Virus record (IMG/VR): IMGVR_UViG_3300003322_001323
Location: 10,534-74,533 of that record
DNA from: a virus
Direction: 5' to 3' (one strand)
Length of the DNA stretch: 64,000 nt
In this document: positions 1-64,000 of the stretch, in pieces
Layout: each line of letters begins with the position of its first letter
Numbering within the stretch: the stretch's first letter is position 1
Notes under the pieces: model-generated
Database searches by the model: none
What the model was told of the DNA's origin: nothing
What the model saw: the letters and a program-made list of their open reading frames with translations, nothing else
Translations under genes and position numbers: made by a program

Positions 1-32
1 GTCTCCTTCTTTAATGGTAAAGCGATCTTGGC

Positions 33-670: not shown

Positions 671-870
671 TGGCTTTCTCCCATCGACTCAATCAGAATA
701 TCAATGTCATCCTTGTCGGCCGCTTCGATCGCCAGGCTCTCCTCCCACAGCTTCTCATCGCGGAACTTGCGCACGGCATCCTCAATGATTTGCGCGATGT
801 ACTCCGGTGGCAGCGCGTCCAGCTCCCAGCTGCTCTCGCCGTGAACCTGGCGGTAGCCAGGTGGGACAGG
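667..870 (-). pseudogene. C-terminal remnant of a Toprim-like (WELDAL-motif) phage protein
   Basis: Start-less frame GYRQVHGESSWELDALPPEYIAQIIEDAV...; in-frame TAG at 871-873; upstream ATG at 898 is in another frame; stop overlaps next ATG. Confidence 0.55.
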
Positions 871-33930: not shown

Positions 33931-35686
33931 GCCGGGCAGGTTTTATCCACCCAAGGTTTTAGGTAAAGCTCATTGGCCACCGAGCTATGAGCGCGTGCAT
34001 AAATGGCGCCAGCTGCAGCTGCGAACGTTCAAGCGTGATCCAGCTTCATTGGAAGCGGCACTGCGGTATTACGCCGAGCCCAAGCACGCGGCCGAGTTCA
34101 TCTGCCACTGGGTGGACACCTACGATCCGCGCAACGCCGGTTCAAAGTTGCCCACGCGATTGCCGCTCGTGCTGTTTGAGAAGCAGGCCGAGCTTGTGGA
34201 TTTCCTGAACGCACTGGTTGAGAACCAGCAGAATGGGCTCATCGACAAGAGCCGCGACATGGGTGCAACCTGGCTCTGCTGCGCGTTCAGCGTTTGGATG
34301 TGGCTGTTCGTTCCGGGCGCATCGATCGGTTGGGGCTCGCGCAAGCAGGAATTGGTGGATAAGCTTGGCGATCTGGACAGCATCTTTGAGAAGCTGCGCC
34401 AACTCATTCGCGGTCTGCCGCGCGAGTTCCTGCCACACGGTTTTGCCTATTCAAAGCATTTGAGCTTTGAGCGCATTTTGAACCCGGAGACGGGCGCCAG
34501 CATCACGGGCGAGGTCGGCGATAACATCGGCCGTGGCGGCCGCAAATCGATTTACTTCAAGGACGAGAGCGCCCACTATGAGCATCCCGAGCTCATTGAG
34601 GCGGCGCTGGGCGACAATACCCGCGTCCAGGTGGACATCTCCACGCCGAACGGCATCGGCACGGTCTACGACCGCAAGAAGGAAAGCGCCATAGAGTGGA
34701 AGCCCGGCGACAAGATGAAGCCGGGCTTTACGCAGATGATCGTGATGGACTGGTCACATCATCCGATGAAGACGCAGAAGTGGTACGACGAGCGCGAAGC
34801 CAAGATGAAGCGCGAGGGCCTCATCCACATCTTCCGCCAAGAGGTGGACCGCAATCCAGCCGCCTCGCTCGTCGGCATCATCATCCCGGCTGAGTGGGTG
34901 AACGCCGCGGTGGATGCCCACGTCAAGCTGGGCTTCGGCGCGACCGGCAGCCTGGTAGGCGCGCTAGACGTGGCGGATGAGGGCGGTGACCTCAACGCGC
35001 TCACCATGCGCAAGGGCGTGATTCTGCAGCTGGCCGAGGACTTCGCGGGCGACGAGGAGGGCGTGGGCAAGAGCGCGCGCTACGCCATCGGGGAGCTGCA
35101 GCAGCGGGGCTGCTTCAATCTTCAATACGACTGCATCGGCGTTGGCGCCGGCGTTAAGACCGAGGCGGCGCGGCTGCGAAAGGAGCAGAAGCTGCCGCGG
35201 GGCTTTCAGGTCATTGCCTGGGATGCGGGCCAGTCGGTGCTCCGGCCGAAGGAGCGCCTGGTGCCGGGCGACAAGACCTCGCCGCTGAACGAGGACTTCT
35301 ACAAGAACCTGAAGGCGCAGGGCTGGTGGGAGCTGCGCCGACGGTTTGAGAAGACCTACCAGATGATAAAAGAGCCCTACATCTATCAGTATAAGTTCAA
35401 CGAGCTCATCTCGCTGCCGAGCACGCTGCCCCGGTTGCCGCAGTTGAAGAGAGAGCTTTCCCAACCGACGATCGCGCGCGATGGAGCCATGCGCATCCTG
35501 GTGGACAAGAAGCCGGATGGCGCGAAGTCGCCCAACCTTGGAGACAGCATTATGATGAATTATTTCCCGCTCCAGGGCGCGATGATCGTGACCGACGAGC
35601 ACATTGCAAGCATGGCCAGGCCAACACCCATGAAGTTGCGCAGCGAGCGGCAATCGCAGGCCGACCAGGTGGCGCAGTTCCGGTGA
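33914..35686 (+). CDS. terL: Terminase large subunit
   Basis: KSRDMGAT, FKDESAH, STPNG, LDVADEGGD, KSPNLGDS. Confidence 0.95.
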   Translation: MTKKPKPGRFYPPKVLGKAHWPPSYERVHKWRQLQLRTFKRDPASLEAALRYYAEPKHAAEFICHWVDTYDPRNAGSKLPTRLPLVLFEKQAELVDFLNALVENQQNGLIDKSRDMGATWLCCAFSVWMWLFVPGASIGWGSRKQELVDKLGDLDSIFEKLRQLIRGLPREFLPHGFAYSKHLSFERILNPETGASITGEVGDNIGRGGRKSIYFKDESAHYEHPELIEAALGDNTRVQVDISTPNGIGTVYDRKKESAIEWKPGDKMKPGFTQMIVMDWSHHPMKTQKWYDEREAKMKREGLIHIFRQEVDRNPAASLVGIIIPAEWVNAAVDAHVKLGFGATGSLVGALDVADEGGDLNALTMRKGVILQLAEDFAGDEEGVGKSARYAIGELQQRGCFNLQYDCIGVGAGVKTEAARLRKEQKLPRGFQVIAWDAGQSVLRPKERLVPGDKTSPLNEDFYKNLKAQGWWELRRRFEKTYQMIKEPYIYQYKFNELISLPSTLPRLPQLKRELSQPTIARDGAMRILVDKKPDGAKSPNLGDSIMMNYFPLQGAMIVTDEHIASMARPTPMKLRSERQSQADQVAQFR

Positions 35687-37983
35687 AGCCCCACAAGCCC
35701 GGCGAATATACCCGGCGCAAGCGCCGGCAGCCCAAGGCCGCCAAGCCGCGGCCGGCGATCGCGCGCCATCCGGTCAAGGCCAAGGCCAAGCGTGGACCCC
35801 GGTTGCGCGAGGCCGGCCTGGGCGCCGACCAGCTCTCGCAGTTCACCGGCATTCAGCGGGAGCTGAAGCGGGTCAAGGACAAGCCCTTAAAGGGCAAGCG
35901 GGTCTTTCGCATCACCGATCAGATGCTGGCCAATGCCAGGGGTCACACGGGCGCGAGCGTGGAGCTGGCGCGCAAGATATTCGCGGCGGCCAAGCCCTTG
36001 CCAACGGTGCTGCCGAAGAACAACCAAAAAGCCCTGCTGGCGATGGATGAAAACATCAGCCTGTTCACGGCCTGGGCGGCGCAGAGCATCTACAATGGCG
36101 CCTTCCAGCAGGGCGTAACCTTCCTGGGCTATCCGTACCTGGCCGAGCTCACCCAGCGCGCCGAATATCGTCGGATCAGTGAGGTGATCGCCACCGAGAT
36201 GACGCGCAAGTGGATCGAGATCAAGGCCCACAGCGCGCAGAAGGTAACGGCCGCGCTTACCGATGAGGAGGGCGAGGACACCGAGGAGGAGGACCTCAAC
36301 GCGGGCGGCCCCGAGGAGGCGGAGGAGCTCCAGGGTGATGACCCGAGCTTCCAGTACGACGACGGCGTGGCCACCGATGAGGTGGTCAAGTGGGTGGACA
36401 GCCCGGAGCAGGCCGCGGCCGAGGTGGACCAGCTTGCGCAGACGCAAAACGGCGAGGCGCCTACCGACCCCAACGCCAACCTCGAGGTGGACGGCGAGGA
36501 GGACGTGGACGTGGACGGTGCGGTGGCGCCGAGTGCGCCCGCCGCTCCGGATAAGACCGCCAAGATCAAGGAATTGGAGGACGAGCTAAAGCGTTTAAAC
36601 GTCCAGGCCCTGTTCAAGAGCATCTGTGAGCAGGACGGCTTCTTTGGCCGCGCGCATCTCTACATTGATACGGGCCATACCGACAACCTGCCCGAGCTGA
36701 AAATGCCGATTGGCGACGGCCAGGACCAGGTAAGCCAGGCCAAGCTCAAGCCGGGCAGCATCAAGGCGCTCAAAACCGTGGAGGCTATCTGGTGCTACCC
36801 GGCCAACTACGACAGCTTTGATCCGCTCAAGCCGGACTGGTATCGACCATGCTCATGGTTCGTGCAGGGCAAGGAGGTGCACGCCTCACGCCTGCTGACC
36901 TTCGTCGGGCGCGAGGTACCGGATATGCTGAAGCCGGCCTATTCGTTCGGCGGGCTATCACTCTCGCAAATGGTCAAGCCGGTGGTGGACAACTGGCTCA
37001 ACGTGCGCCAGAGCGTGGCCGACATCATCAAGGCCTTCACGGTCTTTGTACTTAAGACTAACCTGCAGACCTTAATGCAGGAGGACGGCGACCAGGTTAC
37101 ACGCCGCGCCGACTATTTCAACGCCACGCGCAGCAACCGCGGCGTGATGATGGTGGACAAAGAGACCGAAGACTTCATGAACGTCTCGGCCTCGCTGGCA
37201 TCGCTGGACAAGCTCCAGGCCCAGGCCGAGGAGCACATCTGCTCAGCCTCCGGCCTCCCCCTGGTCAAGTACACCGGCATTTCGCCCAGCGGCCTTAATG
37301 CCACGAGCGAGTTTGAGATTCAGGTCTTCTACGATTTCATCAAGGCCTTCCAGAACTTCTTCTTCGCGCCCAACCTTACGCGCATCTTTCACATGGCCCA
37401 GATCAACCTGTGGGGTGCGGTGGACCCGGACCTGTACTATGAGTTCCTGCCGCTGCAGGAGCTGACCGAAAAGGATCGCGGCGACAAGGAGAAGGCCGAG
37501 GCCGATCGCGACAAGACCCTTATCGACGCGGGCGTGCTCCATCCCGAGGAGGCCCGCGCGCGGCTGAGCCAGGAGGCCGATGGCCCCTACGCCGGCATTG
37601 ACGTGAACAACGTGCCGGAGCCGCCGATGCCGCCAGGCGGCGAGGACCCGTTCGGGCGCGAAGAAGGTTTTGACGAGGGCGCTGAGCCCGGCAGCGAGGA
37701 GCCACCGGCCTTTGATGCCGATTTTGATGAGAGCAAGCATCGGCGCGGCCCGGGTGGCCAGTTTGGCAGCGGCGGCAAGAGCGCGAGCGCAAAGCCGGTG
37801 AAGCATAAGGCCGGCGAGGTGCATCGCGTGGGCAAGTTCTCCGTGCGCCACGACCCGGCGCGCGCCAAGAAGGGCCTGCCGTCCTACGCCGTATTTGAGG
37901 ACGACAACGTGAAGGCGCATAGCGCGCACCACGACTTAAACGAGGCTAAGGGTGCCGCCGAGAAGCGCCACCGCGGCGAGTAA
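35683..37983 (+). CDS. Portal protein (DUF1073-type) with acidic insertion and C-terminal extension
   Basis: FLGYPYLAELTQRAEYR, VHASRL, YSFGGLSLSQ, GISPSGLNAT. Confidence 0.9.
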   Translation: MKPHKPGEYTRRKRRQPKAAKPRPAIARHPVKAKAKRGPRLREAGLGADQLSQFTGIQRELKRVKDKPLKGKRVFRITDQMLANARGHTGASVELARKIFAAAKPLPTVLPKNNQKALLAMDENISLFTAWAAQSIYNGAFQQGVTFLGYPYLAELTQRAEYRRISEVIATEMTRKWIEIKAHSAQKVTAALTDEEGEDTEEEDLNAGGPEEAEELQGDDPSFQYDDGVATDEVVKWVDSPEQAAAEVDQLAQTQNGEAPTDPNANLEVDGEEDVDVDGAVAPSAPAAPDKTAKIKELEDELKRLNVQALFKSICEQDGFFGRAHLYIDTGHTDNLPELKMPIGDGQDQVSQAKLKPGSIKALKTVEAIWCYPANYDSFDPLKPDWYRPCSWFVQGKEVHASRLLTFVGREVPDMLKPAYSFGGLSLSQMVKPVVDNWLNVRQSVADIIKAFTVFVLKTNLQTLMQEDGDQVTRRADYFNATRSNRGVMMVDKETEDFMNVSASLASLDKLQAQAEEHICSASGLPLVKYTGISPSGLNATSEFEIQVFYDFIKAFQNFFFAPNLTRIFHMAQINLWGAVDPDLYYEFLPLQELTEKDRGDKEKAEADRDKTLIDAGVLHPEEARARLSQEADGPYAGIDVNNVPEPPMPPGGEDPFGREEGFDEGAEPGSEEPPAFDADFDESKHRRGPGGQFGSGGKSASAKPVKHKAGEVHRVGKFSVRHDPARAKKGLPSYAVFEDDNVKAHSAHHDLNEAKGAAEKRHRGE

Positions 37984-38785
37984 CGCCAAGCCCAAGCTGC
38001 TCAAGCCGGTGCGCCCCTCCGCGGCGATTGACGCCTGGTACAAGCGCAAGCTGGACCAGCTGGTTGAGGAGATGAACGCCTCGATTGCCTTCTGGCTGGA
38101 GCGATCCTACGCCAACCGCGAGGACCAGATTGTGGCCATGGATGAGCTGCCGGCCAAGCAACTGAGCCGGGCGCTGGCCCGGTTGCGGCGGCGCTGGCAG
38201 AAGAACTTCGACGAGGCGGCGCCCAAGATCGCCAAGCATTTTACCCAGCAGGTGGACCAGCGCAGCAAGAAGCAGCTGCAGGACATTCTGAAGGAGGCCG
38301 GCTTCTCGGTCGAGTTCACGATGACCTCGAAGCAGGCTGATGGTATTCGCGCCAACATTCAGGAAAACGTGTCGCTGATCCGATCCATTCCGCAGAAGCA
38401 CTTTACGGATATTGAGGGCATGGTGATGCGCTCAGTGCAGGCGGGTCGGGACTTGCACACGCTTTCGACCCAATTGCAGAAGCAATACGGCAAGACCAAG
38501 AAGCGCGCCGCGCTCATCGCGCGCGATCAGAACAACAAGGCAACGGCCTTTTTGACGCGGACGCGGCAGGGGGAGCTCGGCATCAAGAAGGCCATCTGGA
38601 TGCACAGCCACGCGGGCAAGGTCCCGCGGCCGACGCACCTGGCCAACGACGGCAAGCCCTACGACGTGGAGAAGGGCTGGTACGATCCCGATGCCCACGG
38701 CAAGGGCAAGGGCGCCTACATCTTTCCCGGCGAGCTCATCAACTGCCGGTGCGTTTCCAGGTCCATCATTCCGGGTTTCACATGA
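37952..38785 (+). CDS. Head morphogenesis protein (MuF/SPP1 gp7 family)
   Basis: ENVSLIRSIP, RAALIARDQNNK, PRPTH, PGELINCRC. Confidence 0.92.
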   Translation: MPPRSATAASNAKPKLLKPVRPSAAIDAWYKRKLDQLVEEMNASIAFWLERSYANREDQIVAMDELPAKQLSRALARLRRRWQKNFDEAAPKIAKHFTQQVDQRSKKQLQDILKEAGFSVEFTMTSKQADGIRANIQENVSLIRSIPQKHFTDIEGMVMRSVQAGRDLHTLSTQLQKQYGKTKKRAALIARDQNNKATAFLTRTRQGELGIKKAIWMHSHAGKVPRPTHLANDGKPYDVEKGWYDPDAHGKGKGAYIFPGELINCRCVSRSIIPGFT

Positions 38786-38976
38786 GCATCTTGAGATTGG
38801 ACGCTAACGACACGCAGTTTGCCGCGCTTGCCACCACGCTCGGGTTCACCGAGATGGAGGGGCGCTACCTGGTGCGTGGCAAGCCGCTTACCAACGACGA
38901 GGCGGAGCGGGTGCGCGACGCGCTCCAGGACGGCATGTACAAGCTCTATCACATGGAAGCGCGGGGCAACGCGTGA
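38782..38976 (+). CDS. Hypothetical protein
   Basis: ATGA/GTGA coupling on both sides. Confidence 0.6.
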   Translation: MSILRLDANDTQFAALATTLGFTEMEGRYLVRGKPLTNDEAERVRDALQDGMYKLYHMEARGNA

Positions 38977-39596
38977 GCACACCGCGACGCCAGGTACTGG
39001 ACTTTTTCAAGCTGTATCCGACGCGCCGACCCATCTCGCGCGCCGCGCTCTCGGGTGTGCTGGGAATCGCCTTTCCAACGTTGGACCTGGCGCTGGAGCA
39101 GTTGCGCTCCGAAAACATTCTGGAGCCGACCAGCTGTGGCGAGTGGCGCCCCACCATGGCCTTTGTGCGGGTAGAGCTGGCCAAGCGCGATTTCATCGTG
39201 GAGCAGGCCGATGCCGCAGCGCAAAAGATCGCGATAAAAAACGAGGAGCGCCAGCGCAAGCGGGCGGAGAAGCTGGCTCGGCGCGAGGAGCGCGCGCGGG
39301 AGCGCCTGATTCAACGCCTGGAGCGCCAGGCCCAGCAGGCGGTTGACCGGGAGAAGGCGCGCGAGGAGCGGGCCAACCAGCGGCTAATCGATCGGCTGGA
39401 GCGGAAGCTGCTGGATCAGCAGGAAAGCGCTGGCAAGATACCGCCGGCCGTGGTGGAGCCGATCATCTTTGAGCCCAAGGTCATCACCCCAAGCAGCGAG
39501 GCCTGGGCGAAGGTGCGGGAGCGTCGCTATGCCAAGCCGGCCTACCTGGGCAGCGAGTTTACGCTTGATCCGCGCAAGCTGATGGGCTCGCGGTGA
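38973..39596 (+). CDS. Hypothetical protein, wHTH-like N-terminus plus coiled coil
   Basis: ISRAALSGVLGI..PTL..AL..L; E/R-rich helix. Confidence 0.65.
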   Translation: MSTPRRQVLDFFKLYPTRRPISRAALSGVLGIAFPTLDLALEQLRSENILEPTSCGEWRPTMAFVRVELAKRDFIVEQADAAAQKIAIKNEERQRKRAEKLARREERARERLIQRLERQAQQAVDREKAREERANQRLIDRLERKLLDQQESAGKIPPAVVEPIIFEPKVITPSSEAWAKVRERRYAKPAYLGSEFTLDPRKLMGSR

Positions 39597-40000
39597 GCCT
39601 GGAGGAGCCGGTACAGCGCTTTCAGCGCCTGAGCGCCAAGCTGATCCGGCGCTGCGGCTATCACTTTCCGGTCGGGCACTGGACCTACGCGCACTGGTGT
39701 CCGGCCTGCGAGGAGCTGCACGACTTCGCGGTGGAGCAGCCATTTACCAATGGGGCGCAGTGGACGCTATGCGCGGACGGCCTGGAGCTGCCTACCTTCA
39801 GCCCGAGCATGAACATTCGCATTGGACCGTTACCAGCGGACAGCCACAAGCCGGGTGGCTTCGAGGTTTGCCATTACTTTCTGAGCAAGGGCCAGCTGCG
39901 GTATCTCACCGACTGCACGCACCGGCTATGCGCCCAGACGGTGGACCTGCCCGACATTCCGGCGCGCGCCCTGCAATATATGACCGAGGTCAAATCATGA
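39593..40000 (+). CDS. DUF6527-like zinc-binding protein
   Basis: WCPAC..H, PTFSPS, CHYF..G...LTDCTH. Confidence 0.75.
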   Translation: MSLEEPVQRFQRLSAKLIRRCGYHFPVGHWTYAHWCPACEELHDFAVEQPFTNGAQWTLCADGLELPTFSPSMNIRIGPLPADSHKPGGFEVCHYFLSKGQLRYLTDCTHRLCAQTVDLPDIPARALQYMTEVKS

Positions 40001-40281
40001 GTCATCTAAGCGATTTTACTTATCATCTGATCGAAAACCGCGAGGGTACGCCCGTGGAAGTGGGGACCATCGTTTCGGTCTTTACCAACCTGGGCAACTA
40101 TCTGCCGGGCAGCACGCCGGCGGAGCAGCGCGATTACGCGCGCCGCGAGCTGATGCCTGAGAAAATGCTGGCCTTCGATGCGGAGGCGGACACCTTCGAC
40201 ACCATCAACGAGGGCGAAGCGCCAGAGGATTTTCTCATTCGTCGCGACAAGGGCCTAAAGGACAGCGGGTTCCGTGCCTAG
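39997..40281 (+). CDS. Hypothetical protein bearing LAFDA motif
   Basis: ATG 39997 with GAGG RBS, coupled. Confidence 0.6.
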   Translation: MSHLSDFTYHLIENREGTPVEVGTIVSVFTNLGNYLPGSTPAEQRDYARRELMPEKMLAFDAEADTFDTINEGEAPEDFLIRRDKGLKDSGFRA

Positions 40282-40906
40282 CGTTTCGGAGAAGCAGCAC
40301 AACGCGATGGAAGCGGCCGCGCATGGTCACTCCACGCTTGGTATCCCCAAGAGCGTGGGCCAGGAATTTGTCGAGGCCGACAAGGTGGCCAAGGACGCGG
40401 AGCCGCGCGCCGCGGGCGTGCTGGTACGGGATGCGGACGGTCGCGTGCTGTTCGCGCGCCGCTCGGGCACCGGCGACTATGGTGGGCACTGGGCGCTGTT
40501 TGGCGGTGGCGTGGAGAGCGGCGAGACCGATGAGGAGGCAGCACGGCGTGAATTGATGGAGGAGAGCGGCTACCAGGCCGACAGCCTCACCCCGGTGCAC
40601 GAGCATTACTTCAACGGGCTCAACTTCGCGACCTTCGCGCACGACGCCGGCTCGCAGTTCATTCCCAAGCTCACGGGCGAACACGACGCCTGGGCCTGGG
40701 CGCACCCGAGCTCGCCGCCATCCCCCCTGCACCCCGGCGTGGCCGCCACGCTCGGCGACATCGCGCGCGAGCAGGAGGCGCGGTTCACCTGGGGGCCGGA
40801 TCAATTGGAGATAATACAGCCGGAAAATCCCCAGCCGGCGCCGCCGTACATTGAGGAGATTGACGACCCCGGCGAGGCCGCGGTGGAGCTGGAAATCTCC
40901 GAGTGA
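40274..40906 (+). CDS. Nudix hydrolase with N-terminal leader
   Basis: Complete Nudix box G-GVESG-E-TDEEAAR-RELMEESG. Confidence 0.92.
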   Translation: MPSVSEKQHNAMEAAAHGHSTLGIPKSVGQEFVEADKVAKDAEPRAAGVLVRDADGRVLFARRSGTGDYGGHWALFGGGVESGETDEEAARRELMEESGYQADSLTPVHEHYFNGLNFATFAHDAGSQFIPKLTGEHDAWAWAHPSSPPSPLHPGVAATLGDIAREQEARFTWGPDQLEIIQPENPQPAPPYIEEIDDPGEAAVELEISE

Positions 40907-42399
40907 TCCCGAACCTGAACGCGCTGGCGCGCCTGGCCTTTGACGAGGGCGATTGGAAGGAGAGCCAGCATCCGCGCGACCCGAAGGGTCAGTTCACGAG
41001 CGGGGGCGGGAGCTCCGGCACCGGCCCGAGCAACTCGAACAAGCCGGTACAGGTCTCCACCACGATCGGCACGCCGCTGAGCAAGGCCGGCTTCAAGAAG
41101 GTGAAGCAGCCCGGACCGAACGGCAGCGTGACCTTCTTTCACCCGAGCGGGGTGAAGGTCCACGTGCACCCGGCGCCCGAGGGCAAGAAATATTCCAGCA
41201 AGTGGACGCATGAGGCGGAAGGCGCGCAGACGCAGGGGGAGGGCTCCAAGCTGGAGCAGCTTCTCGCCAAGCTGGTGCAGAAGGCGGAGGCGGCGAAGCC
41301 GGCGCCAACGCTGAAGGCAATGGGCACGCACGAGTTTACGCCGAATGGCAGCAGCAACGCCGAAAAGATCGCCGACATCGAGAGCAAGGGATGGAAGTTT
41401 GCCGGCGTTAGCAAGGAGGGAGATAAAACCCTCTTTAATGGTGGAGGAGCGGGTTGCGTCTTCAACAATAAGACGGGAACTGCCACCACCTACATGCATT
41501 TTAGCGACGCGCAGCAGGCGGTTAACGCAGAAGCGCCTGCGCTAAGTGAAAACGAACAAGCGTTCATAAAGGCGAGTGGTACCTTCGCCAAGGAGCAGGG
41601 CTACAAGCCGATTGACATAGATGGAAGTACGATAATCTATGCTAAGGAAAACGGGGCCAAACTACAAATCAGTGCTGGCAATGGACATTGGGTTGCTTCA
41701 ACTCCGGGACACGTGACCAAGGAAGGTTATAGCCTGGACAATTTGAAACAATTGCTAACCACGAATACCGTACCTTCTGGCGTTTTTAATTCGCAATTCG
41801 CCATTCAGACCCAGGCTGAGAAGGTAGCCGCCACCAAAGCGCAGAAAGAGGCGCAGAAGGCGCAGGCCGAGGCTAGCAAGCACAAGAAGCTCTATACCAA
41901 GCTCAAGGACCAGGCGCCGCACCCGACCTCGACGCAGCAGAATGCCATCGCCAAATACAGCGGCTCGGGCTATTCGTCCTGGAACGATAAGCTGCGGCAC
42001 GATCCGAACTACGCCAAGACCGACCCGCTGACGAAGCACCTGGATGATTATTTGAACAACGCCACCTTTGAGGAAGATTTCACCGTTACCCGTAAGGTGG
42101 ATGGTGAATACGCCAAAATCCTCAAGAGCATCATCTTCGAGGGGACGAAGTTCATCGATCGTGGCTACGTTAGCACCAGCGCCACGGGGCAATGGCATGG
42201 TAGCTTAAAGTTCATCATCAACATCAAGAAGGGCCAGAAGGGCGCGGCGATCGGCAAGTGGTCGCACCACCCGAGCGAGGACGAGGTGCTGCTACCGCGA
42301 AATTCGGCCTTTGTGGTCAAGACCTATGACGCGGCGAACAACACCATCCACGTGGATTTGGACCAGAGCCATTTTGAGGAGAAGAAGGCGGCCGCATGA
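40903..42399 (+). CDS. ADP-ribosyltransferase (VIP2/C3/T4 Alt-like R-S-E clade), multidomain
   Basis: YSGSGY..WN.KLR, VTRKV, GYVSTS, SEDEVLLPRNS. Confidence 0.88.
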   Translation: MIPNLNALARLAFDEGDWKESQHPRDPKGQFTSGGGSSGTGPSNSNKPVQVSTTIGTPLSKAGFKKVKQPGPNGSVTFFHPSGVKVHVHPAPEGKKYSSKWTHEAEGAQTQGEGSKLEQLLAKLVQKAEAAKPAPTLKAMGTHEFTPNGSSNAEKIADIESKGWKFAGVSKEGDKTLFNGGGAGCVFNNKTGTATTYMHFSDAQQAVNAEAPALSENEQAFIKASGTFAKEQGYKPIDIDGSTIIYAKENGAKLQISAGNGHWVASTPGHVTKEGYSLDNLKQLLTTNTVPSGVFNSQFAIQTQAEKVAATKAQKEAQKAQAEASKHKKLYTKLKDQAPHPTSTQQNAIAKYSGSGYSSWNDKLRHDPNYAKTDPLTKHLDDYLNNATFEEDFTVTRKVDGEYAKILKSIIFEGTKFIDRGYVSTSATGQWHGSLKFIINIKKGQKGAAIGKWSHHPSEDEVLLPRNSAFVVKTYDAANNTIHVDLDQSHFEEKKAAA

Positions 42400-43892
42400 T
42401 TGAGCTGCACTTTACCGACAATCAGTGCGTAGTCAAGGGGCGCCCCGACCTGGGCGGCTTTCCCAATCCCTTCGCCGCGCTCAAGGCGGTGGAGCTGCTC
42501 GGCATGGATGAGATGCCGAACCGCAACTTTGATCGCGATGGTCGCATGCACGTTCGCACCTCGAACATCTCGAAGGCGAACATCTGCGATTATTACGGCC
42601 GCGAGATTCCGGGCTGGCAGCGCCTGGGCCTGGACCCGCTGAAGAAGTACAAGCTTTTACGGCATCCCGATGAGCTCGCCAAGGCCGCGCCGACCTTCAA
42701 CAATCTGCCGATCCTCATCAAGCACACGCACGTAACGGCCGACGATCATCAGCCGCACCTGATCGTGGGCACTACGGGCTCGGAGGCGCGTTACGAGCAT
42801 CCCTACATGAAAAACGGGACGAGCTTCTGGGCCGGTGGCGCCATCGACGGCATTCGCACCGAAGCCATGAACGAACTTTCCAGTTCCTACCATTACCGCC
42901 CGGATATGACGCCGGGTGAGTATGAGGGAGAGGCCTACGATGGAGTGATGCGAGACATCGTAGGAAACCACGTCGCATTGGTCCGTGATGGACGAGCCGG
43001 GGACGACGTCGTCGTCGGCGACAGCAAACCAGAGGAGTATCTTATGAGCAAGACTGTGTTGTCGCGCACGGCTCTCTACGCGGCCGGGGCCTTGCAAGCC
43101 CTGATCGGTGCGAAGCTGGCGATGGACTCCAAGCCGATTGACACGTCGGCGCTGTTCGAGGGTGTGACGTCCAAGAACTTTGACGAGCAGAAGGCGACCG
43201 TCAAGGCGCGCCTGCTGGAAGCGTTGAAGGGCGAAGGCGTCAAGCTGGCGCAGGATGCGCTGCCCGAAAACCTGGCCGGCCTCGCCGAGAAGATGGAGAT
43301 GCCGGCAGTGCAGGAGGGTGCCGACGCCGACCCGGAAACGGGCGCACCGCTGGATGCGGAAGCCCTGATGAAGGCGATGCACGATCCGGGCGCTTCCGAC
43401 ATCGATGTTGATTCCAAGCGGCGCGAGTTTCTCGCAGGCAAGCTCTCCGCCGATGACATGAAAGCCTACGACGCGATCGGCGGCGCACCGTCCGAAGAAA
43501 CCGTGGTTGTACCTGAAAAGGAGAAAATCGAGGACATGATCACCAAGCCGGCCATGGATGAGGCCATCAAGTCTGCCACTGACGCTGCCATTGCAGGCGA
43601 GCGTAAGAACCAGCAGGCCATCCAGGCCGCGCGCGAAGCGGTCGAGCCCTATGTCGGCAAGCTGGCGCTTGCGTTCGACAGCGCGCCCGACGTCTATCGC
43701 AAGGCCTTGGGCATGATGGGCGTGAAGGACGCGGACAAAATCCACGCCGATGCGCTCCCCCACGTGCTTTCTGCCCAGCGCAAGCCGGGTGAGCGCGTCA
43801 ACAGCGGTCGTCTGAGCCTGGCCCACGACGCCAAGCCGTCGGACGACTTTCACACCCGCTTCGCCGGTGCCTCGCGCATCGGGGTGGCGTAA
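42396..43892 (+). CDS. DUF2213 prohead protease/scaffold
   Basis: ISKANI..YYGREIP, ELSSSY, GNHVALV..GRAG. Confidence 0.9.
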   Translation: MIELHFTDNQCVVKGRPDLGGFPNPFAALKAVELLGMDEMPNRNFDRDGRMHVRTSNISKANICDYYGREIPGWQRLGLDPLKKYKLLRHPDELAKAAPTFNNLPILIKHTHVTADDHQPHLIVGTTGSEARYEHPYMKNGTSFWAGGAIDGIRTEAMNELSSSYHYRPDMTPGEYEGEAYDGVMRDIVGNHVALVRDGRAGDDVVVGDSKPEEYLMSKTVLSRTALYAAGALQALIGAKLAMDSKPIDTSALFEGVTSKNFDEQKATVKARLLEALKGEGVKLAQDALPENLAGLAEKMEMPAVQEGADADPETGAPLDAEALMKAMHDPGASDIDVDSKRREFLAGKLSADDMKAYDAIGGAPSEETVVVPEKEKIEDMITKPAMDEAIKSATDAAIAGERKNQQAIQAAREAVEPYVGKLALAFDSAPDVYRKALGMMGVKDADKIHADALPHVLSAQRKPGERVNSGRLSLAHDAKPSDDFHTRFAGASRIGVA

Positions 43893-43920
43893 AGATCAAT
43901 CTTGAAAGGAGATTGAAATT

Positions 43921-44889
43921 ATGAACGGCATTCAAACTCAGGTTGGCGCCGCACAGGCCCCCGCGGTAGCGGGTGATTGGGCCTCCGGCAACCCGCGCTC
44001 GTTCTTTGACGCTGGTCCGGGCGGTCTCGTGGCCGGCCTCGCTGGCGTTACCGTGGGCGTTTTCGCCTGGACGAGCGCACTGCGCGTCGATGGCGACGGC
44101 GCTCCCGCGGTGGCAAACAATTTCGGTGCGGGCCTTCCCACCGGCATTGTGCACCGCCAGCAGCAGGGCCTCATCACGACCTTCCTGGCCGACGCCTCGA
44201 TGGTCATCGTTCCCGGCACCCAGCTCGCCATCTGCACCGCAGGTGACATCTGGGTCAAGAACGATGGCTCCACGCAGGCGCTACCGGGCCAGAAGGTCTA
44301 TGCGAACCTCACGACCGGCAAGATCAACTTTGCCGCGACCGGGGCCGCCACGGCCGGCGCCACCAGCTCGGCGTCTTCCATCGCTGCCAGCACCTTCTCG
44401 GTGACTGGTTCCATTGCCGGAAACGTGTTGAGCGTTACCGCGGTGGGCTCGGGCACGGTGGTTCCCGGCGGCACCATCTCGGGCACCGGCATCGCGACCG
44501 GAACCAAGATCGTGTCGCAGCTCACCCCCCTGCTCTCGGGCGAAGCGCTGGGCGGCATTGGCCGTTACGCCGTTTCGATCCCCGAGCAGACCGTTGCTTC
44601 CACGACCGTCAGCGGTACTTATGGCACGCTGACCGTGGGCGGCACCGTGGCGGGCACCTTCGCCGTCGGTCAGGCCCTGGCCGCGACCGGCTCGGTGGTG
44701 GCGGGCACGACCATCACGGCGCTGGGCACCGGCACGGGCGGCGCCGGCACCTACATCGTGGACAACAACACGGTGGTTGCCTCGCAGGCGATCAACGTGC
44801 TGGCGGTCAACATCGAAACGCGGTGGTACGCGGTCAGTTCCGGCTTGGCCGGAGAGCTGGTCAAGATCACCACGCATCCGGTCGGCTAA
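43921..44889 (+). CDS. Head decoration/cement protein with inserted beta-rich modules
   Basis: PAVAGDWASGNPR, VHRQQQGLIT, GDIWV; directly upstream of capsid gene. Confidence 0.8.
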   Translation: MNGIQTQVGAAQAPAVAGDWASGNPRSFFDAGPGGLVAGLAGVTVGVFAWTSALRVDGDGAPAVANNFGAGLPTGIVHRQQQGLITTFLADASMVIVPGTQLAICTAGDIWVKNDGSTQALPGQKVYANLTTGKINFAATGAATAGATSSASSIAASTFSVTGSIAGNVLSVTAVGSGTVVPGGTISGTGIATGTKIVSQLTPLLSGEALGGIGRYAVSIPEQTVASTTVSGTYGTLTVGGTVAGTFAVGQALAATGSVVAGTTITALGTGTGGAGTYIVDNNTVVASQAINVLAVNIETRWYAVSSGLAGELVKITTHPVG

Positions 44890-44918
44890 CGGCCAACTCG
44901 AGAAGGAGCAACTGAACA

Positions 44919-46007
44919 ATGAATTTGATTGAAGCACAAGCCCTCTTCGAGTCGGATCGTCCGCATCTCGAAGAATTGGGTATCAGCCTGCCGGCGGTAC
45001 AGTCGTACCTGCCGACCGGCGCCAAGAAGGACTGGACGCTCGCCTTTGACGCCCAGCCCTCCCTCGTCACGGACCCGAACTCCGCCGTGCCGGCAATGCT
45101 CACCACCTTGATTGACCCCGATGTCATCAAGGTGCTGTTCTCGCCGACCAAGGCCGCCGAGATTCTCGGTGAAAAGCGCAAGGGTACCTGGCTGGATGAC
45201 GTCATCATGTTCCCGGTCACCGAAGACACCGGCGAGGTTTCCTCGTACGATGACTTCGCGGAGAACGGGCGCAGCGGCCTGAACGTCAACTGGCCGCAGC
45301 GCCAGTCGTATCTTTTCCAGATCATGAAGGAATACGGCGAGCGCGAGCTCGAGCGTGCCGGTCTGGCAAAGATCAACTGGGTGTCGAGCCTGGACCAGGC
45401 GGCAGCGGGCGTGATGAACCGCTTTCAGAACCTGTCCTACTTCTTCGGCATCGCCGGCCTGCAGAACTATGGTCTGCTCAACGATCCCAACCTGTCCGCC
45501 TCCCTTACCCCGGCCACCAAGGCCGCAGGCGGCGTCAAATGGATCAATGGCACCCAGATCGTGGCGACGGCCAACGAGGTCTATTCCGACATTCAATCGC
45601 TGTTCTTCCAGCTGGTTTCCCAGGCTGGTGGTACCATCGACCAGAACGCGGAAATGACTCTCGCCATGTCGCCGACCTCGGAGGTGGCTCTTACCGCCAC
45701 CAACTCGTTCGGCGTCAACGTGACCGACCTGTTGAAGAAGAACTTCCCCAACATGAAGGTCATCACCGCCGTGCAGTATGGCGTGGTCTCTGCCGCCAAT
45801 CCCAATGGCGTCGCGGCCGGCAACCTGGTGCAGCTGATCGCGGGTCGCGTGGACGGTCAGGAGACCGGTTTTGCGGCCTTCAACGAGAAGATGCGCCAGC
45901 ACAACCTCATCAAGGCCACCTCGTCCTTCAAGCAGAAGGTCTCGGGCGGCACCTGGGGTGCGGTCATCCGGCAGGCGTTCGCCATTTCCTCGATGGTGGG
46001 CGTGTAA
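44919..46007 (+). CDS. Major capsid protein (DUF2184-type)
   Basis: NWPQRQSY, YGERELE, GLQNYGLLNDPNL, GGTWGAVI. Confidence 0.92.
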   Translation: MNLIEAQALFESDRPHLEELGISLPAVQSYLPTGAKKDWTLAFDAQPSLVTDPNSAVPAMLTTLIDPDVIKVLFSPTKAAEILGEKRKGTWLDDVIMFPVTEDTGEVSSYDDFAENGRSGLNVNWPQRQSYLFQIMKEYGERELERAGLAKINWVSSLDQAAAGVMNRFQNLSYFFGIAGLQNYGLLNDPNLSASLTPATKAAGGVKWINGTQIVATANEVYSDIQSLFFQLVSQAGGTIDQNAEMTLAMSPTSEVALTATNSFGVNVTDLLKKNFPNMKVITAVQYGVVSAANPNGVAAGNLVQLIAGRVDGQETGFAAFNEKMRQHNLIKATSSFKQKVSGGTWGAVIRQAFAISSMVGV

Positions 46008-58502: not shown

Positions 58503-59314
58503 TGGCACCACTAGCAGGTCCCATTGGCAGCTTCGATATTGGTGAAAGCGCCATTGAAGTAAGTCCGAGCTATTTTTTCCCAGCGGGTCAGCCGCCATCG
58601 CCGATCGGCGAATTCGACATTGGCAACAGCCAAATCGGTCGGTGCAGCTATTTCAACTGGCAGGATACGGTTATCAGTCAGTATGCCAACAGCCCGCGCC
58701 TGCTGCAGATAATTGAGAACGTCTTTAACAACCTCGACCAAACGATAAACATCGAGGATTTCTTCTCCAAGATGTGGAGCATTGATTCGGCGGAGGGCTA
58801 CGGCCTGGACGTATGGGGCCGCATTCTGGGTATCAGCCGCACGCTACCGGTGGACGCCGGCAGCTATTTCGGTTTCGCCGAGGCTAATGATGACACGCTG
58901 GTCGGGTTCGATCAGGAGCCGTTCTACAACGGTCCGCCCGTTACCGACAACTATGCCCTCACGGATAGCGCCTATCGACTGTTGCTACTGGCCAAGGCTG
59001 CCGCCAATATCTGCGACGGCTCCATACCGGCGATAAACCAGCTCCTCATGAATCTTTTCCCATTCCGCGGAAAGGCCTACGTGCAGGAGGGCGACGGCCT
59101 GGATTCAAACTATTTCGGTTTTGCCGAAACCGGCGAAGATTTCAGCCAGGGATTTGACCAGGAGCCCTTCTATACGGGCCAGGCTTTTTCTAGCATGAAT
59201 ATGCGCTACGTATTCGAGTTCTCTCTTACACCGGTGGAGCTCGCTATCGTGAACAACTCCGGCGTGCTTCCAACCCCGACTGGCGTAAATGCCATCGTCG
59301 TCATCAATCCTTAA
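58502..59314 (+). CDS. DUF2612 baseplate wedge protein
   Basis: ISQYANSP, AEGYGLDVWGRI, YR.LL.AKAAANI, LPTPTGV. Confidence 0.9.
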   Translation: MAPLAGPIGSFDIGESAIEVSPSYFFPAGQPPSPIGEFDIGNSQIGRCSYFNWQDTVISQYANSPRLLQIIENVFNNLDQTINIEDFFSKMWSIDSAEGYGLDVWGRILGISRTLPVDAGSYFGFAEANDDTLVGFDQEPFYNGPPVTDNYALTDSAYRLLLLAKAAANICDGSIPAINQLLMNLFPFRGKAYVQEGDGLDSNYFGFAETGEDFSQGFDQEPFYTGQAFSSMNMRYVFEFSLTPVELAIVNNSGVLPTPTGVNAIVVINP

Positions 59315-59326
59315 AGGGATACTGAA

Positions 59327-60484
59327 ATGCTGCTGACCGATATTCCCGTACGGTTCGAAATCCCCTTCGCCAAGAACGCGCCGGGCCCGTACATCTCCAC
59401 CCCGATCCCCCTGACCACGCCCACCCCGGGGCGCGCATCGCTTGACGTCGGCTTTCCAGCGGTAAATTTTCTGCCGCGAGGTAGCGGCGGTATTCCGCCG
59501 TTCGGAGTAGATTTCAATGGCCTAATGTTTCAGGTTACTTCGTGGAACCAATGGCATGCGGCAGGGGGGCCGATATTCTACAACACGGCCTTTGCGACGG
59601 CGATCGGAGGCTATCCGAACGGTGCGTGCCTGCTTTCAGCCAACTATCCGGGCCTGGTGTGGCAGAGCACGGCCGATAACAACCTCACCGATCCGGATGA
59701 TTTTGCCACCGCGGCGAACTGGATTTGCGTCCGGAGGTGGAAGCTCTCCGCTGCCACGAACCTATACGTTCGCGCGGATGGCAACGACAATAATTCTGGG
59801 CTTGCCAACAGCGTTGGTGGCGCGTGGCTTACGCCGCAACGCGCGGCAGACTTCATTCAAAAATATGTGGACGTGGGAGCTCAGATTCTCACCGTCAATA
59901 TCGGCGCCGGAACGTTTGGAGTGCTTGGGGTTTCTGGGCCTTTCCCGGGAGCTGCAGGTCCCAACAGCGTTCGCTTCATCGGTGCTGGCTCCACAACCAT
60001 TCTTTCTGGAGCCATACCTATCTCTGGTACGGCGGTCGCGGCTTTCACGGTGGCTGGAGTACAGTCTAATTTCAGTGATCGCGGCGTAATTGCTCAGAGC
60101 AACGCAGTTATCATTATCGGTATTGGCTCAACTTCAGTTACTTTTAACAGCATCGGCGGTACTTTCCATATTGACGCGGATAGCGGTGGCATAATCATTG
60201 GCGGTGGCAATATTTCCATTCAAGGAAATTCCAACGCCTGGGCTGCGGTGGCTGGTCCTAGCACGATAACCATTATCAGCAGAACCTTGACATTCGTAGG
60301 AACGCCAGCTTTTTCAAATGCCGGCGTCTTTACCCAGTACGGCTACATTCAATTTGTAGGTAACACGTACGTTGGAACTACGACTGGTCTAAAGTACAGC
60401 ACCACCTATAACGGCATGATTGAAGGGGTTACCGGACTTCCGGGTTCCGGTACCAATCAGCAAAACGGTGGCCAGTTCCTCTGA
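59327..60484 (+). CDS. Tail fibre protein
   Basis: ASL..GFP, GGIPP.G.DFNG, IGGYP.GA N-terminal anchor; beta-helix-like C-terminus. Confidence 0.85.
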   Translation: MLLTDIPVRFEIPFAKNAPGPYISTPIPLTTPTPGRASLDVGFPAVNFLPRGSGGIPPFGVDFNGLMFQVTSWNQWHAAGGPIFYNTAFATAIGGYPNGACLLSANYPGLVWQSTADNNLTDPDDFATAANWICVRRWKLSAATNLYVRADGNDNNSGLANSVGGAWLTPQRAADFIQKYVDVGAQILTVNIGAGTFGVLGVSGPFPGAAGPNSVRFIGAGSTTILSGAIPISGTAVAAFTVAGVQSNFSDRGVIAQSNAVIIIGIGSTSVTFNSIGGTFHIDADSGGIIIGGGNISIQGNSNAWAAVAGPSTITIISRTLTFVGTPAFSNAGVFTQYGYIQFVGNTYVGTTTGLKYSTTYNGMIEGVTGLPGSGTNQQNGGQFL

Positions 60485-60492
60485 GGTTCGCA

Positions 60493-61740
60493 ATGAAAAA
60501 TTATTTTGGGTTTTTAACATTGCTGATTGGCCTGGCGTTCGCTAATTCAGCGCTCGCGCAGAGCTCGCCGCATCTATATAATGGCCAGCAGCCAAGCAAC
60601 GTGCAGTGGAACTCCTATTTCGCGGCCAAGCAGGACTATCCGGTGCCACCGTTCACCACCACGCAGTCGGGAAGCGTACCCATTTCGCCGGGAGGTACCA
60701 CCGCCTTCTTGCGCGCGGATGGAACCTGGGCGGTACCTGGCGCCGTCATTCTGCCGGGCGATCCGACGGCCACGATCGGCTCCACGCCGGTAAACGGGGT
60801 AGCGACCACCTACATGCGCAGCGACGCGGCGCCGAAGCTTCCGGCTGTTCTGCCCGCGCTGGATGGTTCGCAGCTTACGAATCTGACGATCAACAACCTA
60901 TCCGGCCTGGGTACGGGCGTGGCAACGGCGCTGACGCAAAACGTTTCGGGGACGGGCGCGATTTGCCTGGTTTCTGGAAGCGCCTGCTCGGGAACGCCCG
61001 GCGGGTCCAGCGGTCAGATGCAATGGAATAGCAGTGGCAGCTTTGCGGGAGTAAGTGGTTCCTCGTGCAACGCATCATTTTGCACGCTTACCGGCTACGT
61101 GCTCAGCAGCCCTTCCTTGGGTGGCAGTGTGGTATTTTCGGGCATCACGGGGTCCACACAGTGCCTGCAAGTTAATTCCTCCGGAATTGTATCCGGCACG
61201 GGCTCCGCTTGCGGTGGCGGTGGTGGAGTTACCACCACGGGTTCACCGGCGAATGGCAATTTGACGAAATTTTCCGGAGCATCTACCATTACCAATGGGG
61301 ACCTCTCCGGTGACTGCACGACCTCGGGCACCCTGGTGGTTACGTGCCCATCGCCGATTGCCAAGATCAACGTCAATAACAGCTGGACGGCCGCGCAGCG
61401 TGGCACGCCCGTTACGCTTTCGCTTTCCACGGCGACCGCTACACCAAACTTCGATACGGGACAGAATTTTTCTCTCACGCTTTCCAGCGCTTGCCCCTGC
61501 ACCTTTGCCAATCCATCCACCACGCCGGTGGCGGGACAAACTGGCGTTATTGTCATTATACAAGACGCCACGGGTGGCCGAACTATTGGAACCTGGGGCA
61601 GTAATTATATAACGCCTGGTGGGGTTTCAGTCGGTCTTGCCTTAAGCACTGCCGCCAATGCCAGAGATTATTTCAGCTACTACGTGGATGATTCCACGCA
61701 TATCGTGATCACGCCGGGAGCTCTAAATGCAATCCATTAA
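60493..61740 (+). CDS. Fibre-like protein with signal peptide and five Cys pairs
   Basis: Signal ending ALA-Q; QWNSYFAAKQD; FLRADGTW; IIQDATGGRT fibre-tip-like motif. Confidence 0.8.
   Translation: MKNYFGFLTLLIGLAFANSALAQSSPHLYNGQQPSNVQWNSYFAAKQDYPVPPFTTTQSGSVPISPGGTTAFLRADGTWAVPGAVILPGDPTATIGSTPVNGVATTYMRSDAAPKLPAVLPALDGSQLTNLTINNLSGLGTGVATALTQNVSGTGAICLVSGSACSGTPGGSSGQMQWNSSGSFAGVSGSSCNASFCTLTGYVLSSPSLGGSVVFSGITGSTQCLQVNSSGIVSGTGSACGGGGGVTTTGSPANGNLTKFSGASTITNGDLSGDCTTSGTLVVTCPSPIAKINVNNSWTAAQRGTPVTLSLSTATATPNFDTGQNFSLTLSSACPCTFANPSTTPVAGQTGVIVIIQDATGGRTIGTWGSNYITPGGVSVGLALSTAANARDYFSYYVDDSTHIVITPGALNAIH
60603..60644 (+). repeat. 42-bp perfect repeat shared by two fibre-like genes, copy 1
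   Basis: Identical to 63845-63886. Confidence 0.95.
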
Positions 61741-63708: not shown

Positions 63709-63722
63709 GAAAGGTTTAAATC

Positions 63723-64000
63723 ATGGAAAATAACAAGTTCTTGACCCGTCTCGCCATCATTACCGCTGCCCTGCTGGCCTCGGCCGCGCCGGCCTGCTCG
63801 CAGTCCAATCCTAACCTGGTGTTCGGTCAGGTCCCCACGGCCGCGCAGTGGAACTCCTATTTCGCGGCCAAGCAGGACTATCCGGTTCCGGTATTCAGCG
63901 CCACGGTGAACGGCTCCGTGCCGGCGCCGGGTACCGCGGTCGGCAACTGCTTGAAGGACGACGCAACCTGGGGTTCCTGCGGCGGTGGCGGTGGCGGCTC
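63723..64000 (+). CDS. Fibre-like protein with signal peptide, paralog of 60493 gene (truncated by window)
   Basis: MENNKFLTRLAIITAALLASAAPACSQ...GQVPTAAQWNSYFAAKQDYPVP. Confidence 0.8.
   Translation, partial: MENNKFLTRLAIITAALLASAAPACSQSNPNLVFGQVPTAAQWNSYFAAKQDYPVPVFSATVNGSVPAPGTAVGNCLKDDATWGSCGGGGGG
63845..63886 (+). repeat. 42-bp perfect repeat, copy 2
   Basis: Identical to 60603-60644. Confidence 0.95.

Follow-up and report, generated by a model that had tools for sequence, protein, structure and literature searches.

A predicted A-x-D processing site and a recurrent HPR tag in the head proteins of an uncultured phage

In phage T4, the prohead protease gp21 cuts after L/I-x-E. T4 also packages and injects an ADP-ribosyltransferase (ART); Alt is trimmed by the prohead protease and, like the T4 internal proteins, begins with a short leader whose last residue precedes the cut. 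Among the giant phages, SPN3US gp245 cuts after A-X-E, and the rule for this protease and for phiKZ gp175 (A-X-E or [S/A/G]-X-E) covers capsid, portal and ejection proteins as well as the protease itself (PMC10052503). Here we analysed the head module of an uncultured phage on a stretch of 64,000 nucleotides (the window; positions 10,534 to 74,533 of IMG/VR record IMGVR_UViG_3300003322_001323), which is part of a complete-looking genome of 74,533 bp. Several of its head proteins share a hydrophobic-A-x-D motif, and two of them carry a conserved tag (HPR tag) just after it. We computed motif statistics, conservation, the protease fold, the distribution of the tag and the co-variation of junction and protease. 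The results make it likely that the DUF2213 protein of this module cuts after A-x-D and frees tagged and accessory cargo.

The head module lies at 33.4-46.0 kb on the + strand. It encodes, in this order, the small terminase, the large terminase, the portal, a MuF-like protein, open reading frames (ORFs) of 75, 207 and 135 amino acids (aa), a 94-aa ORF, a Nudix hydrolase, an ART, the DUF2213 protein, a decoration protein and the major capsid protein; the 135-aa ORF belongs to DUF6527. Homologous portal, MuF, DUF2213, decoration and capsid genes occur in the same order in the Pbunaviruses PB1, E217 and Pa193 and in Vibrio phage XM1, which shares the window's decoration-protein family. PB1 has A-x-D at the same junctions as the window phage but no HPR tag. 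Unlike the Pbunaviruses, the window phage has ART, Nudix and other genes added between MuF and the protease. Relatives of its capsid protein were found in 557 deposited phages, each with <60% identity, including Pseudomonas PB1-like, Burkholderia Bcep781-like, Acinetobacter, Xanthomonas, Aeromonas and Klebsiella phages.

The position of the ART and Nudix genes between MuF and protease fits the repertoire of polyvalent, head-tethered effectors. In polyvalent proteins, ART, Nudix, ParB-like, Zeta toxin and LPD modules are tied to MuF, portal and proteases, and it has been proposed that polyvalent and MuF- or portal-fused effectors are processed and injected together with the DNA (Iyer et al. 2017, PMC5512222; Jamet et al. 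2017, PMC5576092). The window's cargo proteins differ in that they mostly stand alone, each with a leader of its own. Iyer et al. 2017 proposed zincin-like peptidases as the main processing enzymes (PMC5512222), unlike the DUF2213 protease considered here. Neither of the two texts mentions the HPR tag or a paired cut site, and no paper defining the A-x-D site or the tag was found in the full text searched, which covers few subscription journals.

The hydrophobic-A-x-D motif in head proteins

An earlier note on this DNA had described a hydrophobic-A-[MFQHK]-D-[AES] motif recurring across the head module. Every listed instance was present: all 14 motif instances and both tags of the note were found in the sequence (Table 1). 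One extra site, LGMD↓E at the N-terminus of DUF2213 (Asp 38; the arrow marks the predicted scissile bond), was absent from the note. The motif was enriched in head proteins over other proteins, with 12 matches to the note's regular expression in 3,444 residues of the head module versus one in 15,711 residues of the 67 other ORFs. Shuffled head-module sequences yielded 0.2 matches. The narrower expression A[MF]D[AES] gave nine matches in the head module (shuffles: 0.4) and none in the other ORFs, and when all six frames of the whole genome were searched, 9/9 matches lay in head-gene frames. The shuffles rule out composition bias as the source of the motif, and the six-frame count rules out a frame artefact.

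When 327 patterns of the type 'hydrophobic-X-any-Y' were scanned without bias, hydrophobic-A-x-D ranked first (p = 5e-4) but missed Bonferroni significance on this window alone (corrected 0.18). This miss counts against our interpretation, as does the choice of the narrow expression after the data had been seen. Taken by itself, the window is therefore suggestive, and the comparative evidence is decisive. In the motif listing of the head genes, the decoration protein, both terminases and the 75-, 207- and 135-aa ORFs had no hydrophobic-[AG]-[MFQHK]-D-[AES] motif. A second match in the Nudix protein, FAHD↓A (Asp 124), falls within the folded domain, where the protease probably could not reach it.

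The comparison covered 21 related viral loci plus PB1. Capsid relatives keep LA[MFLCY]DAQP, with variable sequence N-terminal of the site and a conserved body after it, and many database alignments to the window's capsid protein start exactly at this border. In the portals, one alignment column is [LIVMT]-A-x-D in 14/14, PB1 among them. In MuF, the Asp stands in one column in 16/16 and is preceded by hydrophobic-Ala in nearly all, and the DUF2213 relatives keep L/I-[AG]-x-D immediately N-terminal of the domain. We pooled these four junctions (capsid, portal, MuF and protease N-termini; 14-17 relatives each) and obtained 63 sites with Asp at P1 (100%), Ala at P3 (93%), L/I/M/V at P4 (89%) and Pro at P3' (39%); P2 was mostly Met, Gln, Phe or Leu and P1' mostly Ala, Ser or Glu. 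L002, the closest relative, has all five scaffold-half sites of DUF2213 at matching positions, and its Nudix homologue has A-S-D at the same leader-Nudix junction. Across 12 related loci, the density of A[MF]D was 7-fold higher in head genes (53 in 22.7 thousand residues, versus 13 in 41.4 thousand).

The cut site of the L002 capsid protein (L002:10001-11113) stands in tandem (LAMDAFPGLAMDAQP).

The DUF2213 protease and the solved virions

The DUF2213 gene lies between the portal/MuF genes and the capsid gene, as is the case for prohead proteases of the gp21 fold, and PHROG 2229 labels the family 'head maturation protease'. The protein consists of a protease domain (approximately residues 39-244) and a scaffold-like C-terminal half. 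We built an AlphaFold model of residues 25-235 from 15 sequences (core pLDDT ~90). Its best structural match was T4 gp21 (PDB 5JBL_C; Z 10.4, rmsd 3.0 Å, 134 of 166 residues), and the next matches, herpesvirus assemblins, scored well below it (Z 5.5-6.9). Foldseek alone gave weak E-values (best 2.8e-3); the gp21 match came from a second aligner. His 110, Ser 162 and His 192 were invariant in the 15 sequences, PB1 and Pa193 included, in the order His...Ser...His. DUF2213 is thus most likely a T4-gp21-like serine protease, with His 110, Ser 162 and His 192 as its predicted catalytic residues.

Proteases of the gp21 fold cut after an acidic residue that stands two positions past a small or hydrophobic one, so that a cut after the Asp of hydrophobic-A-x-D is the natural reading of the motif. 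Very likely, this is the site of the DUF2213 family and the Asp version of the A-X-E rule. As in T4 gp21, an acidic P1 would be combined with a hydrophobic or small residue two positions earlier; unlike gp21, P1 is Asp rather than Glu, P3 is near-invariant Ala and the protease is fused to the scaffold. The proteases of the giant phages share the cut after an acidic residue in A-x-acidic, whereas here Asp replaces Glu, the protease belongs to DUF2213, the phages are small (45-75 kb) and cleavage is predicted.

In two relatives, the DUF2213 gene is split into protease and scaffold parts by inserted genes (L011:3261-5260, L010:4982-8946). The L011 insert resembles a homing endonuclease of the GIY-YIG type, and the scaffold ORF of the split gene repeats the end of the protease domain (GRAGPDVVVSD).

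In the solved PB1-like virions, the motif stands at the borders of segments that are missing. The capsid models of E217 (PDB 8FRS) and Pa193 (PDB 9B40) begin at residue 66 of 382, and the authors stated that the first 65 residues 'could be cleaved' (PMC10329688, PMC11456595). The PB1 capsid protein reads ...GSAMD, with A-M-D at 62-64 followed by S65-N66, and a cut after Asp 64 would leave one disordered residue ahead of the start of the models at residue 66. By analogy with these models, DUF2213 would also process the capsid protein of the window phage. The portal was modelled from residue 97 in E217 and from residue 94 in Pa193, residues 1-96 and 1-93 being without density (PMC10329688, PMC11456595), and for the first 93 residues of the Pa193 portal no peptides were found by LC-MS (PMC11456595). 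PB1 has VAMD↓S in its portal ~20 residues before the modelled start, with the Asp at position 76 of the PB1 record, and FAKD (Asp 68) in MuF. The XM1 capsid protein lacks 30 residues at its N-terminus, and the study did not identify the protease (PMC10457771). None of the E217, Pa193 and XM1 papers names a cut site.

Both cryo-EM papers leave 'disordered' possible, and A-x-D might accordingly be conserved for structure or assembly, for instance as a scaffold contact, without being cut, the segments of E217 and Pa193 being simply disordered. We regard this as highly improbable. The four-residue motif is shared by at least seven proteins that are not homologous and stands 5-6 times in the scaffold half alone, it marks the border of variable and conserved sequence, and it co-varies with the presence of a gp21-fold protease. 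Moreover, the N-terminus of the Pa193 portal yielded no LC-MS peptides, and the closely analogous A-X-E sites are proven cut sites (PMC10052503). The claim of the earlier note that DUF2213 cuts after the Asp is thus well supported by orthologous junctions, missing virion segments and the gp21 fold, although unproven; a cut on this side of the Asp fits both the E217 and Pa193 capsid models and the A-X-E rule of related proteases.

Gene product 24 of Pa193, a DUF2213 protein, has been called a putative scaffolding protein (PMC11456595), and another protease candidate has been proposed in XM1 (PMC10457771). Residues 3-168 of Pa193 gp24 (PDB 9B40 chain G; PB1 gp22 = L001:5172-6569) matched the DUF2213 profile (E = 2e-18), and the protein has the conserved His/Ser/His. 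Judged by its sequence, the 'scaffolding protein' of Pa193 is a predicted protease-scaffold fusion. Predicted A-x-D sites flank the helix-turn-helix (residues 286-326) that this protein shows at the capsid vertices.

The HPR tag and the junctions ahead of it

Both copies of the tag that had been reported were present, AFDADFDESKHRRGPGGQFGSGG in the portal and AFDEGDWKESQHPRDPKGQFTSGGG in the ART, and no third copy was found in any frame of the 74,533-bp genome. The portal tag is followed by a basic, His-rich tail of 68 aa up to the stop codon. The two window tags align with four more in relatives: L002 has two in a 654-aa ART (one N-terminal, the other where a ParB-like module meets the ART part) and a third in a 150-aa ORF, and L010 has one in an ART-DUF2213 fusion. 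A search with a word-based method (ART residues 1-60) found one close relative only, and when the 26-aa tag region was compared with deposited phages by tblastn, all matches were weak, although one of them led to Xanthomonas phage PhiXhv-5.

This cultured phage (L102, PV764598.1, 2302-4398) carries both site and tag and would be usable as an experimental model. The portal carries VMAMD↓Y close to its N-terminus, and its C-terminal extension of ~165 aa is preceded by AAED↓AQ-WEENKHPRADNGQF; AAED↓AQ and the tag stand in the equivalent place to PAFD↓A and the tag of the window portal. The sites in its DUF2213 protein are FAFD, PAMD, IAMD and MAND.

We searched 1.84 billion representative proteins with a profile of the six tags. 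There were 2,937 matching protein clusters at E <= 1e-3 and 292 at E <= 1e-10, with up to 18 tag copies in one protein of 7,334 aa. The tag follows the pattern [DE][WF]xE[SG]xHPRxxxG[KQR]F plus a Gly-rich linker. From 479 instances in the best 150 of the 2,937 proteins, we derived the consensus A-[DE]-[WF]-D-E-S-K-H-P-R-D-x-x-G-[KRQ]-F-G-S-G-G-G, in which Glu, His, Pro, Arg, Gly and Phe are each conserved at 90-100% (Glu 95%) and the aromatic residue at 94%. The partner domains in 64 shorter tag proteins were ARTs (13 PF03496, 6 PF01129, 5 ART-PolyVal), Nudix (7), topoisomerase IB (3) and Zeta toxin (2), the remainder being MuF, portal, DUF2213, Mu gpI-like or XkdF-like proteases, ddrB-ParB and LPD1; the tag was also found before kinase domains. 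Together, these domains correspond to the repertoire of the phage 'polyvalent' proteins. In most cases, the tag stands N-terminally after a short leader or between domains. Its portability, as proposed earlier, was supported: it occurs in thousands of unrelated multi-domain phage proteins, ahead of ART, Nudix and other enzyme modules. The AlphaFold model of the window ART has pLDDT <50 at residues 1-20 and 34-48, as would be expected if the motif is linear and flexible.

A 199-aa ART-like ORF (L008:6336-6935) opens with a variant of the tag with a longer spacer (MMPEFREGDHPRGQPGNSGQF), and neither a leader nor a cut site precedes it.

Within one polyvalent protein, the residues ahead of each tag are alike, and between proteins they differ (junction types ..AAGD, ..LAK[EYS], ..TAA, ..K[GEA] and ..R[DE]). 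In the six top DUF2213-containing proteins, 10/10 tags follow [A/S/G]-x-D. We examined the junctions in 79 tag-bearing viral loci, scored as positive if a DUF2213 gene was present on the fetched stretch. Asp was found 3-4 residues before the aromatic residue of the tag in 34/46 tags of DUF2213-positive loci versus 10/50 of the others (p = 1.5e-7), a contrast in which the negative class is noisy because of cut contigs and flanks, which has to be held against it; several of the 10 Asp-bearing 'negative' tags come from cut contigs with a related portal and MuF. All N-terminally tagged ART homologues (14/14) have a hydrophobic leader of ~6-25 aa, then x-D, mostly A-x-D, then 1-4 residues and the tag. 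In the ART family, Asp 14 and the tag residues are invariant and Ala 12 is nearly so. Since the junction varies with the lineage and the tag remains constant, each lineage appears to set its own protease site before a universal tag. We conclude that cut site and tag are two separate things, and that the tag is specific neither to this phage nor to this protease.

The earlier note had interpreted the tag as an analogue of the T4 capsid-targeting sequence (CTS). This was not supported. In every case examined, the tag lies 1-4 residues after the cut site and not in the position of a CTS leader; it would therefore stay on the cargo, unlike the targeting leader of T4, which is removed, and T4 has nothing like it. 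The tag is also found on modules tethered to portal or protease, for which no packaging address is needed. A better CTS analogue is the 14-aa leader of the ART, which ends in LAFD and is conserved in the homologues as expected of a CTS leader, and which is presumably removed. The processing code and the portability of the tag were thus supported, and the CTS analogy was not.

We do not think that the tag is a packaging address. Our best guess is that it acts after cleavage on each freed module, in retention in the head, in exit or in the first steps in the host. The tag may, as a doubtful but not far-fetched version of this, be a universal, transplantable address label for head cargo that, once a protease cut typical of the lineage has exposed it at the N-terminus of a module, would by itself decide retention with the DNA and exit through the tail into the host. 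If this were true, any protein with 'leader, cut site, tag' would be deliverable by many unrelated phages. In a rival reading, the tag would act inside the host cell rather than in the capsid. The constancy of the same tag across lineages with differing head proteins and proteases points to a partner common to all, such as a conserved host factor (a refolding chaperone or a hub of replication or transcription) that the tag would bind in the infected cell. Its retention on every freed module, including those fused to portal or protease, and its flexibility with a linker after it, as in a short docking motif, would also suit such a role. However, no partner is known, and inside the head, an equally universal role could fall to DNA or to some conserved feature of the portal channel. 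We regard a host factor as rather unlikely.

The tag could also be part of the protease substrate, either as an extended docking element on the P' side, by which cuts between folded domains would become efficient, or with its invariant [W/F]-x-E as a second, generic site of the hydrophobic-x-Glu type for gp21-type proteases. It always lies 1-4 residues after the lineage-specific site, its [WF]-x-E resembles the L/I-x-E rule of T4 and the A-X-E rule, in some proteins the tag follows the start codon by 3-5 residues, which leaves no other site ahead of it, and the associated proteases (DUF2213, Mu gpI-like and XkdF-like) are all head-maturation proteases. On the other hand, the core substrates (capsid, portal N-terminus, MuF and scaffold) carry the site without the tag, and the conserved HPRxxxG[KR]F is far from the scissile bond. 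The junction changes by lineage while the tag does not, which argues for two separate functions. A substrate role of the tag is thus improbable.

Predicted cleavage products, cargo proteins and implications

On the reading that DUF2213 cuts after A-x-D, the protease would act in the prohead after the Asp of [L/I/M/V]-A-x-D, a site that often has [A/S/E]-x-P on its C-terminal side. Propeptides of 44, 122, 64 and 38 aa would be removed from the capsid protein, the portal, MuF and the N-terminus of DUF2213, respectively, and DUF2213 would chop its own scaffold half at five sites. Of the accessory proteins, the ART would lose its 14-aa hydrophobic leader, likely a capsid-targeting element, the Nudix protein a leader of 41 aa and the 94-aa protein a leader of 61 aa. 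A basic tail of 88 aa would be cut off the portal. The new N-termini of the ART and of the portal tail would begin with the tag, followed by the Gly-rich linker.

Table 1. Head-module features and predicted products (nucleotide positions in the window; residue numbers in each protein; ↓, predicted scissile bond)
Feature	Position	Strand	Basis
Portal protein, 766 aa (Phage_portal_3)	35683-37983	+	Pfam PF06381, E=3.4e-74
Portal N-terminal site LAMD↓E (Asp 122)	36037-36048	+	Column conserved in portals
Portal C-terminal site PAFD↓A (Asp 678)	37705-37716	+	Motif match
Tag copy 1, DFDESKHRRGPGGQFGSGG, portal residues 680-698	37720-37776	+	
MuF-like head protein, 277 aa	37952-38785	+	Pfam PF04233
MuF site VAMD↓E (Asp 64)	38132-38143	+	
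94-aa ORF, candidate small internal protein	39997-40281	+	Motif only
Site LAFD↓A in 94-aa ORF (Asp 61)	40168-40179	+	
Nudix hydrolase, 210 aa	40274-40906	+	Pfam PF00293, E=3.2e-20
Nudix-protein site VAKD↓A (Asp 41)	40385-40396	+	
ADP-ribosyltransferase, candidate cargo protein, 498 aa	40903-42399	+	Pfam PF03496, E=4.5e-18
ART leader MIPNLNALARLAFD, ending in predicted cut site LAFD↓E (Asp 14)	40903-40944	+	
Tag copy 2, DWKESQHPRDPKGQFTSGGG, ART residues 17-36	40951-41010	+	
DUF2213 protease-scaffold protein, 498 aa	42396-43892	+	Pfam PF09979, E=1.6e-43
Six predicted DUF2213 self-cut sites, Asp codons: LGMD↓E (Asp 38), LAMD↓S (Asp 244), LAQD↓A (Asp 287), PAMD↓E (Asp 388), LAFD↓S (Asp 428), LAHD↓A (Asp 478)	42507, 43125, 43254, 43557, 43677, 43827	+	
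Decoration (minor capsid) protein, 322 aa	43921-44889	+	Pfam PF23982
Major capsid protein, 362 aa; predicted propeptide 1-44	44919-46007	+	
Capsid site LAFD↓AQP (Asp 44)	45039-45050	+	
Capsid product 45-362 (318 aa)			Predicted; E217 model has 317
Portal products: propeptide 1-122, core 123-678, free tail 679-766			Predicted
MuF product 65-277			Predicted
DUF2213 products: protease domain 39-244; scaffold pieces of 43, 101, 40, 50 and 20 aa			Predicted
ART product 15-498			Predicted
Nudix product 42-210			Predicted
94-aa protein product 62-94			Predicted

Further points weigh against this reading. Alignment with MAFFT may favour the lining up of short motifs, and the catalytic residues were assigned by invariance and order, without residue-level superposition on gp21. 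The E217 capsid model starts two residues past the Asp, so that the scissile bond is not fixed to the residue. Cleavage itself is a prediction here; the cryo-EM papers say only 'may be cleaved or disordered' (PMC10329688, PMC11456595). The tag is predicted to be disordered, and the model gives no structural hint to its role. Finally, we infer the presence of the ART and Nudix proteins in virions, as well as the packaging and co-ejection of these two and of the portal tail.

The ART scored 65.7 bits with PF03496 (cut-off 23.4). Its catalytic domain comprises residues 331-478, with STS at 424-426 and E-x-E (E-D-E) at 459-461; both motifs and Arg 397 are invariant among the homologues. The AlphaFold model shows this one recognised enzyme domain plus two or three domains without assigned function, and the homologues P0010/L002 and P0001 have an extra tagged N-terminal module, named ParB-like by a source in the case of P0010. 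The Nudix protein scored 72.9 bits with PF00293 (cut-off 21.1) and has an intact Nudix box (GGVESGETDEEAARRELMEESGY, compared with Gx5Ex7REUxEExGU). Residues 1-37 of its leader follow SxKQxxxMxAAAHG...GIP..V..EF. Residues 1-43 matched phrog_16759, and the Nudix part matched the portal-Nudix fusion family phrog_15528. In Pfam and PHROG searches, the 94-aa ORF had no match.

The MuF-to-protease interval also includes proteins without the motif (75 aa, 207 aa and DUF6527), and ART and Nudix might be ordinary late or early enzymes that are not packaged, with leader, site and tag serving another purpose. This is quite unlikely, as no ART homologue with an N-terminal tag departs from the arrangement of leader, A-x-D site and tag. 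Furthermore, ART and Nudix modules are fused to DUF2213 in relatives (L010) and to portal or MuF in PHROG families (portal-Nudix and MuF-ART), and T4 Alt is a precedent for a packaged ART that is trimmed by the prohead protease. The conserved architecture, the fusions and this precedent make it plausible that ART, portal tail and Nudix protein are cargo.

The type of the Nudix leader (PSVSxxQxxxMxAAAHG..GIP..V..EF; window 40274-40396) is reminiscent of DUF3008. It recurs within DUF2213 polyproteins (L008:6932-8986, P0122, P0113, P0105), directly after hydrophobic-A-T-D↓PP(V/T)S junctions. Besides the HPR tag, it may thus represent another recurrent module of the leader or tag kind.

The portal has a long acidic insertion of low complexity, with runs rich in E, D, G and A (residues ~175-290; window 36200-36550), between its N-terminal segment and the Pfam portal domain; it is absent from PB1. 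The C-terminus of the decoration protein (residues ~165-322; window 44400-44889) is an extension of ~160 aa that is rich in Gly, Thr, Val and Ala and resembles tail-fibre-like PHROGs, to which it has matches; relatives have segments of this kind in large ORFs further downstream (L009:14057-16033, L010:17675-19876). Over the last 5 kb of the window (59000-64000), the G+C content falls from ~0.62 to 0.54-0.57. This stretch has + strand ORFs of 385, 415, 364 and 296 aa and may be a mosaic tail-fibre or host-range module.

The A-x-D site would be an Asp variant of the already known A-X-E rule. With a rule [LIMV]-A-x-D↓, the ends of the mature capsid, portal, MuF and scaffold proteins could be predicted across a very large group of phages, the capsid family alone occurring in 557 deposited phage genomes, which include therapeutic Pseudomonas PB1-like and Acinetobacter phages. 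Such a rule would account for the unexplained missing segments in the E217, Pa193 and XM1 structures and would give the 'scaffolding protein' of Pa193 a new label, that of a protease-scaffold fusion. Of greater interest is the tag, a sharp motif of 16-20 residues that thousands of phage proteins carry, in every case where an enzyme module begins. If it governs the retention or delivery of cargo, it would offer a testable route to the injection of anti-defence and takeover enzymes by phages, and a handle for loading chosen proteins into phage heads.

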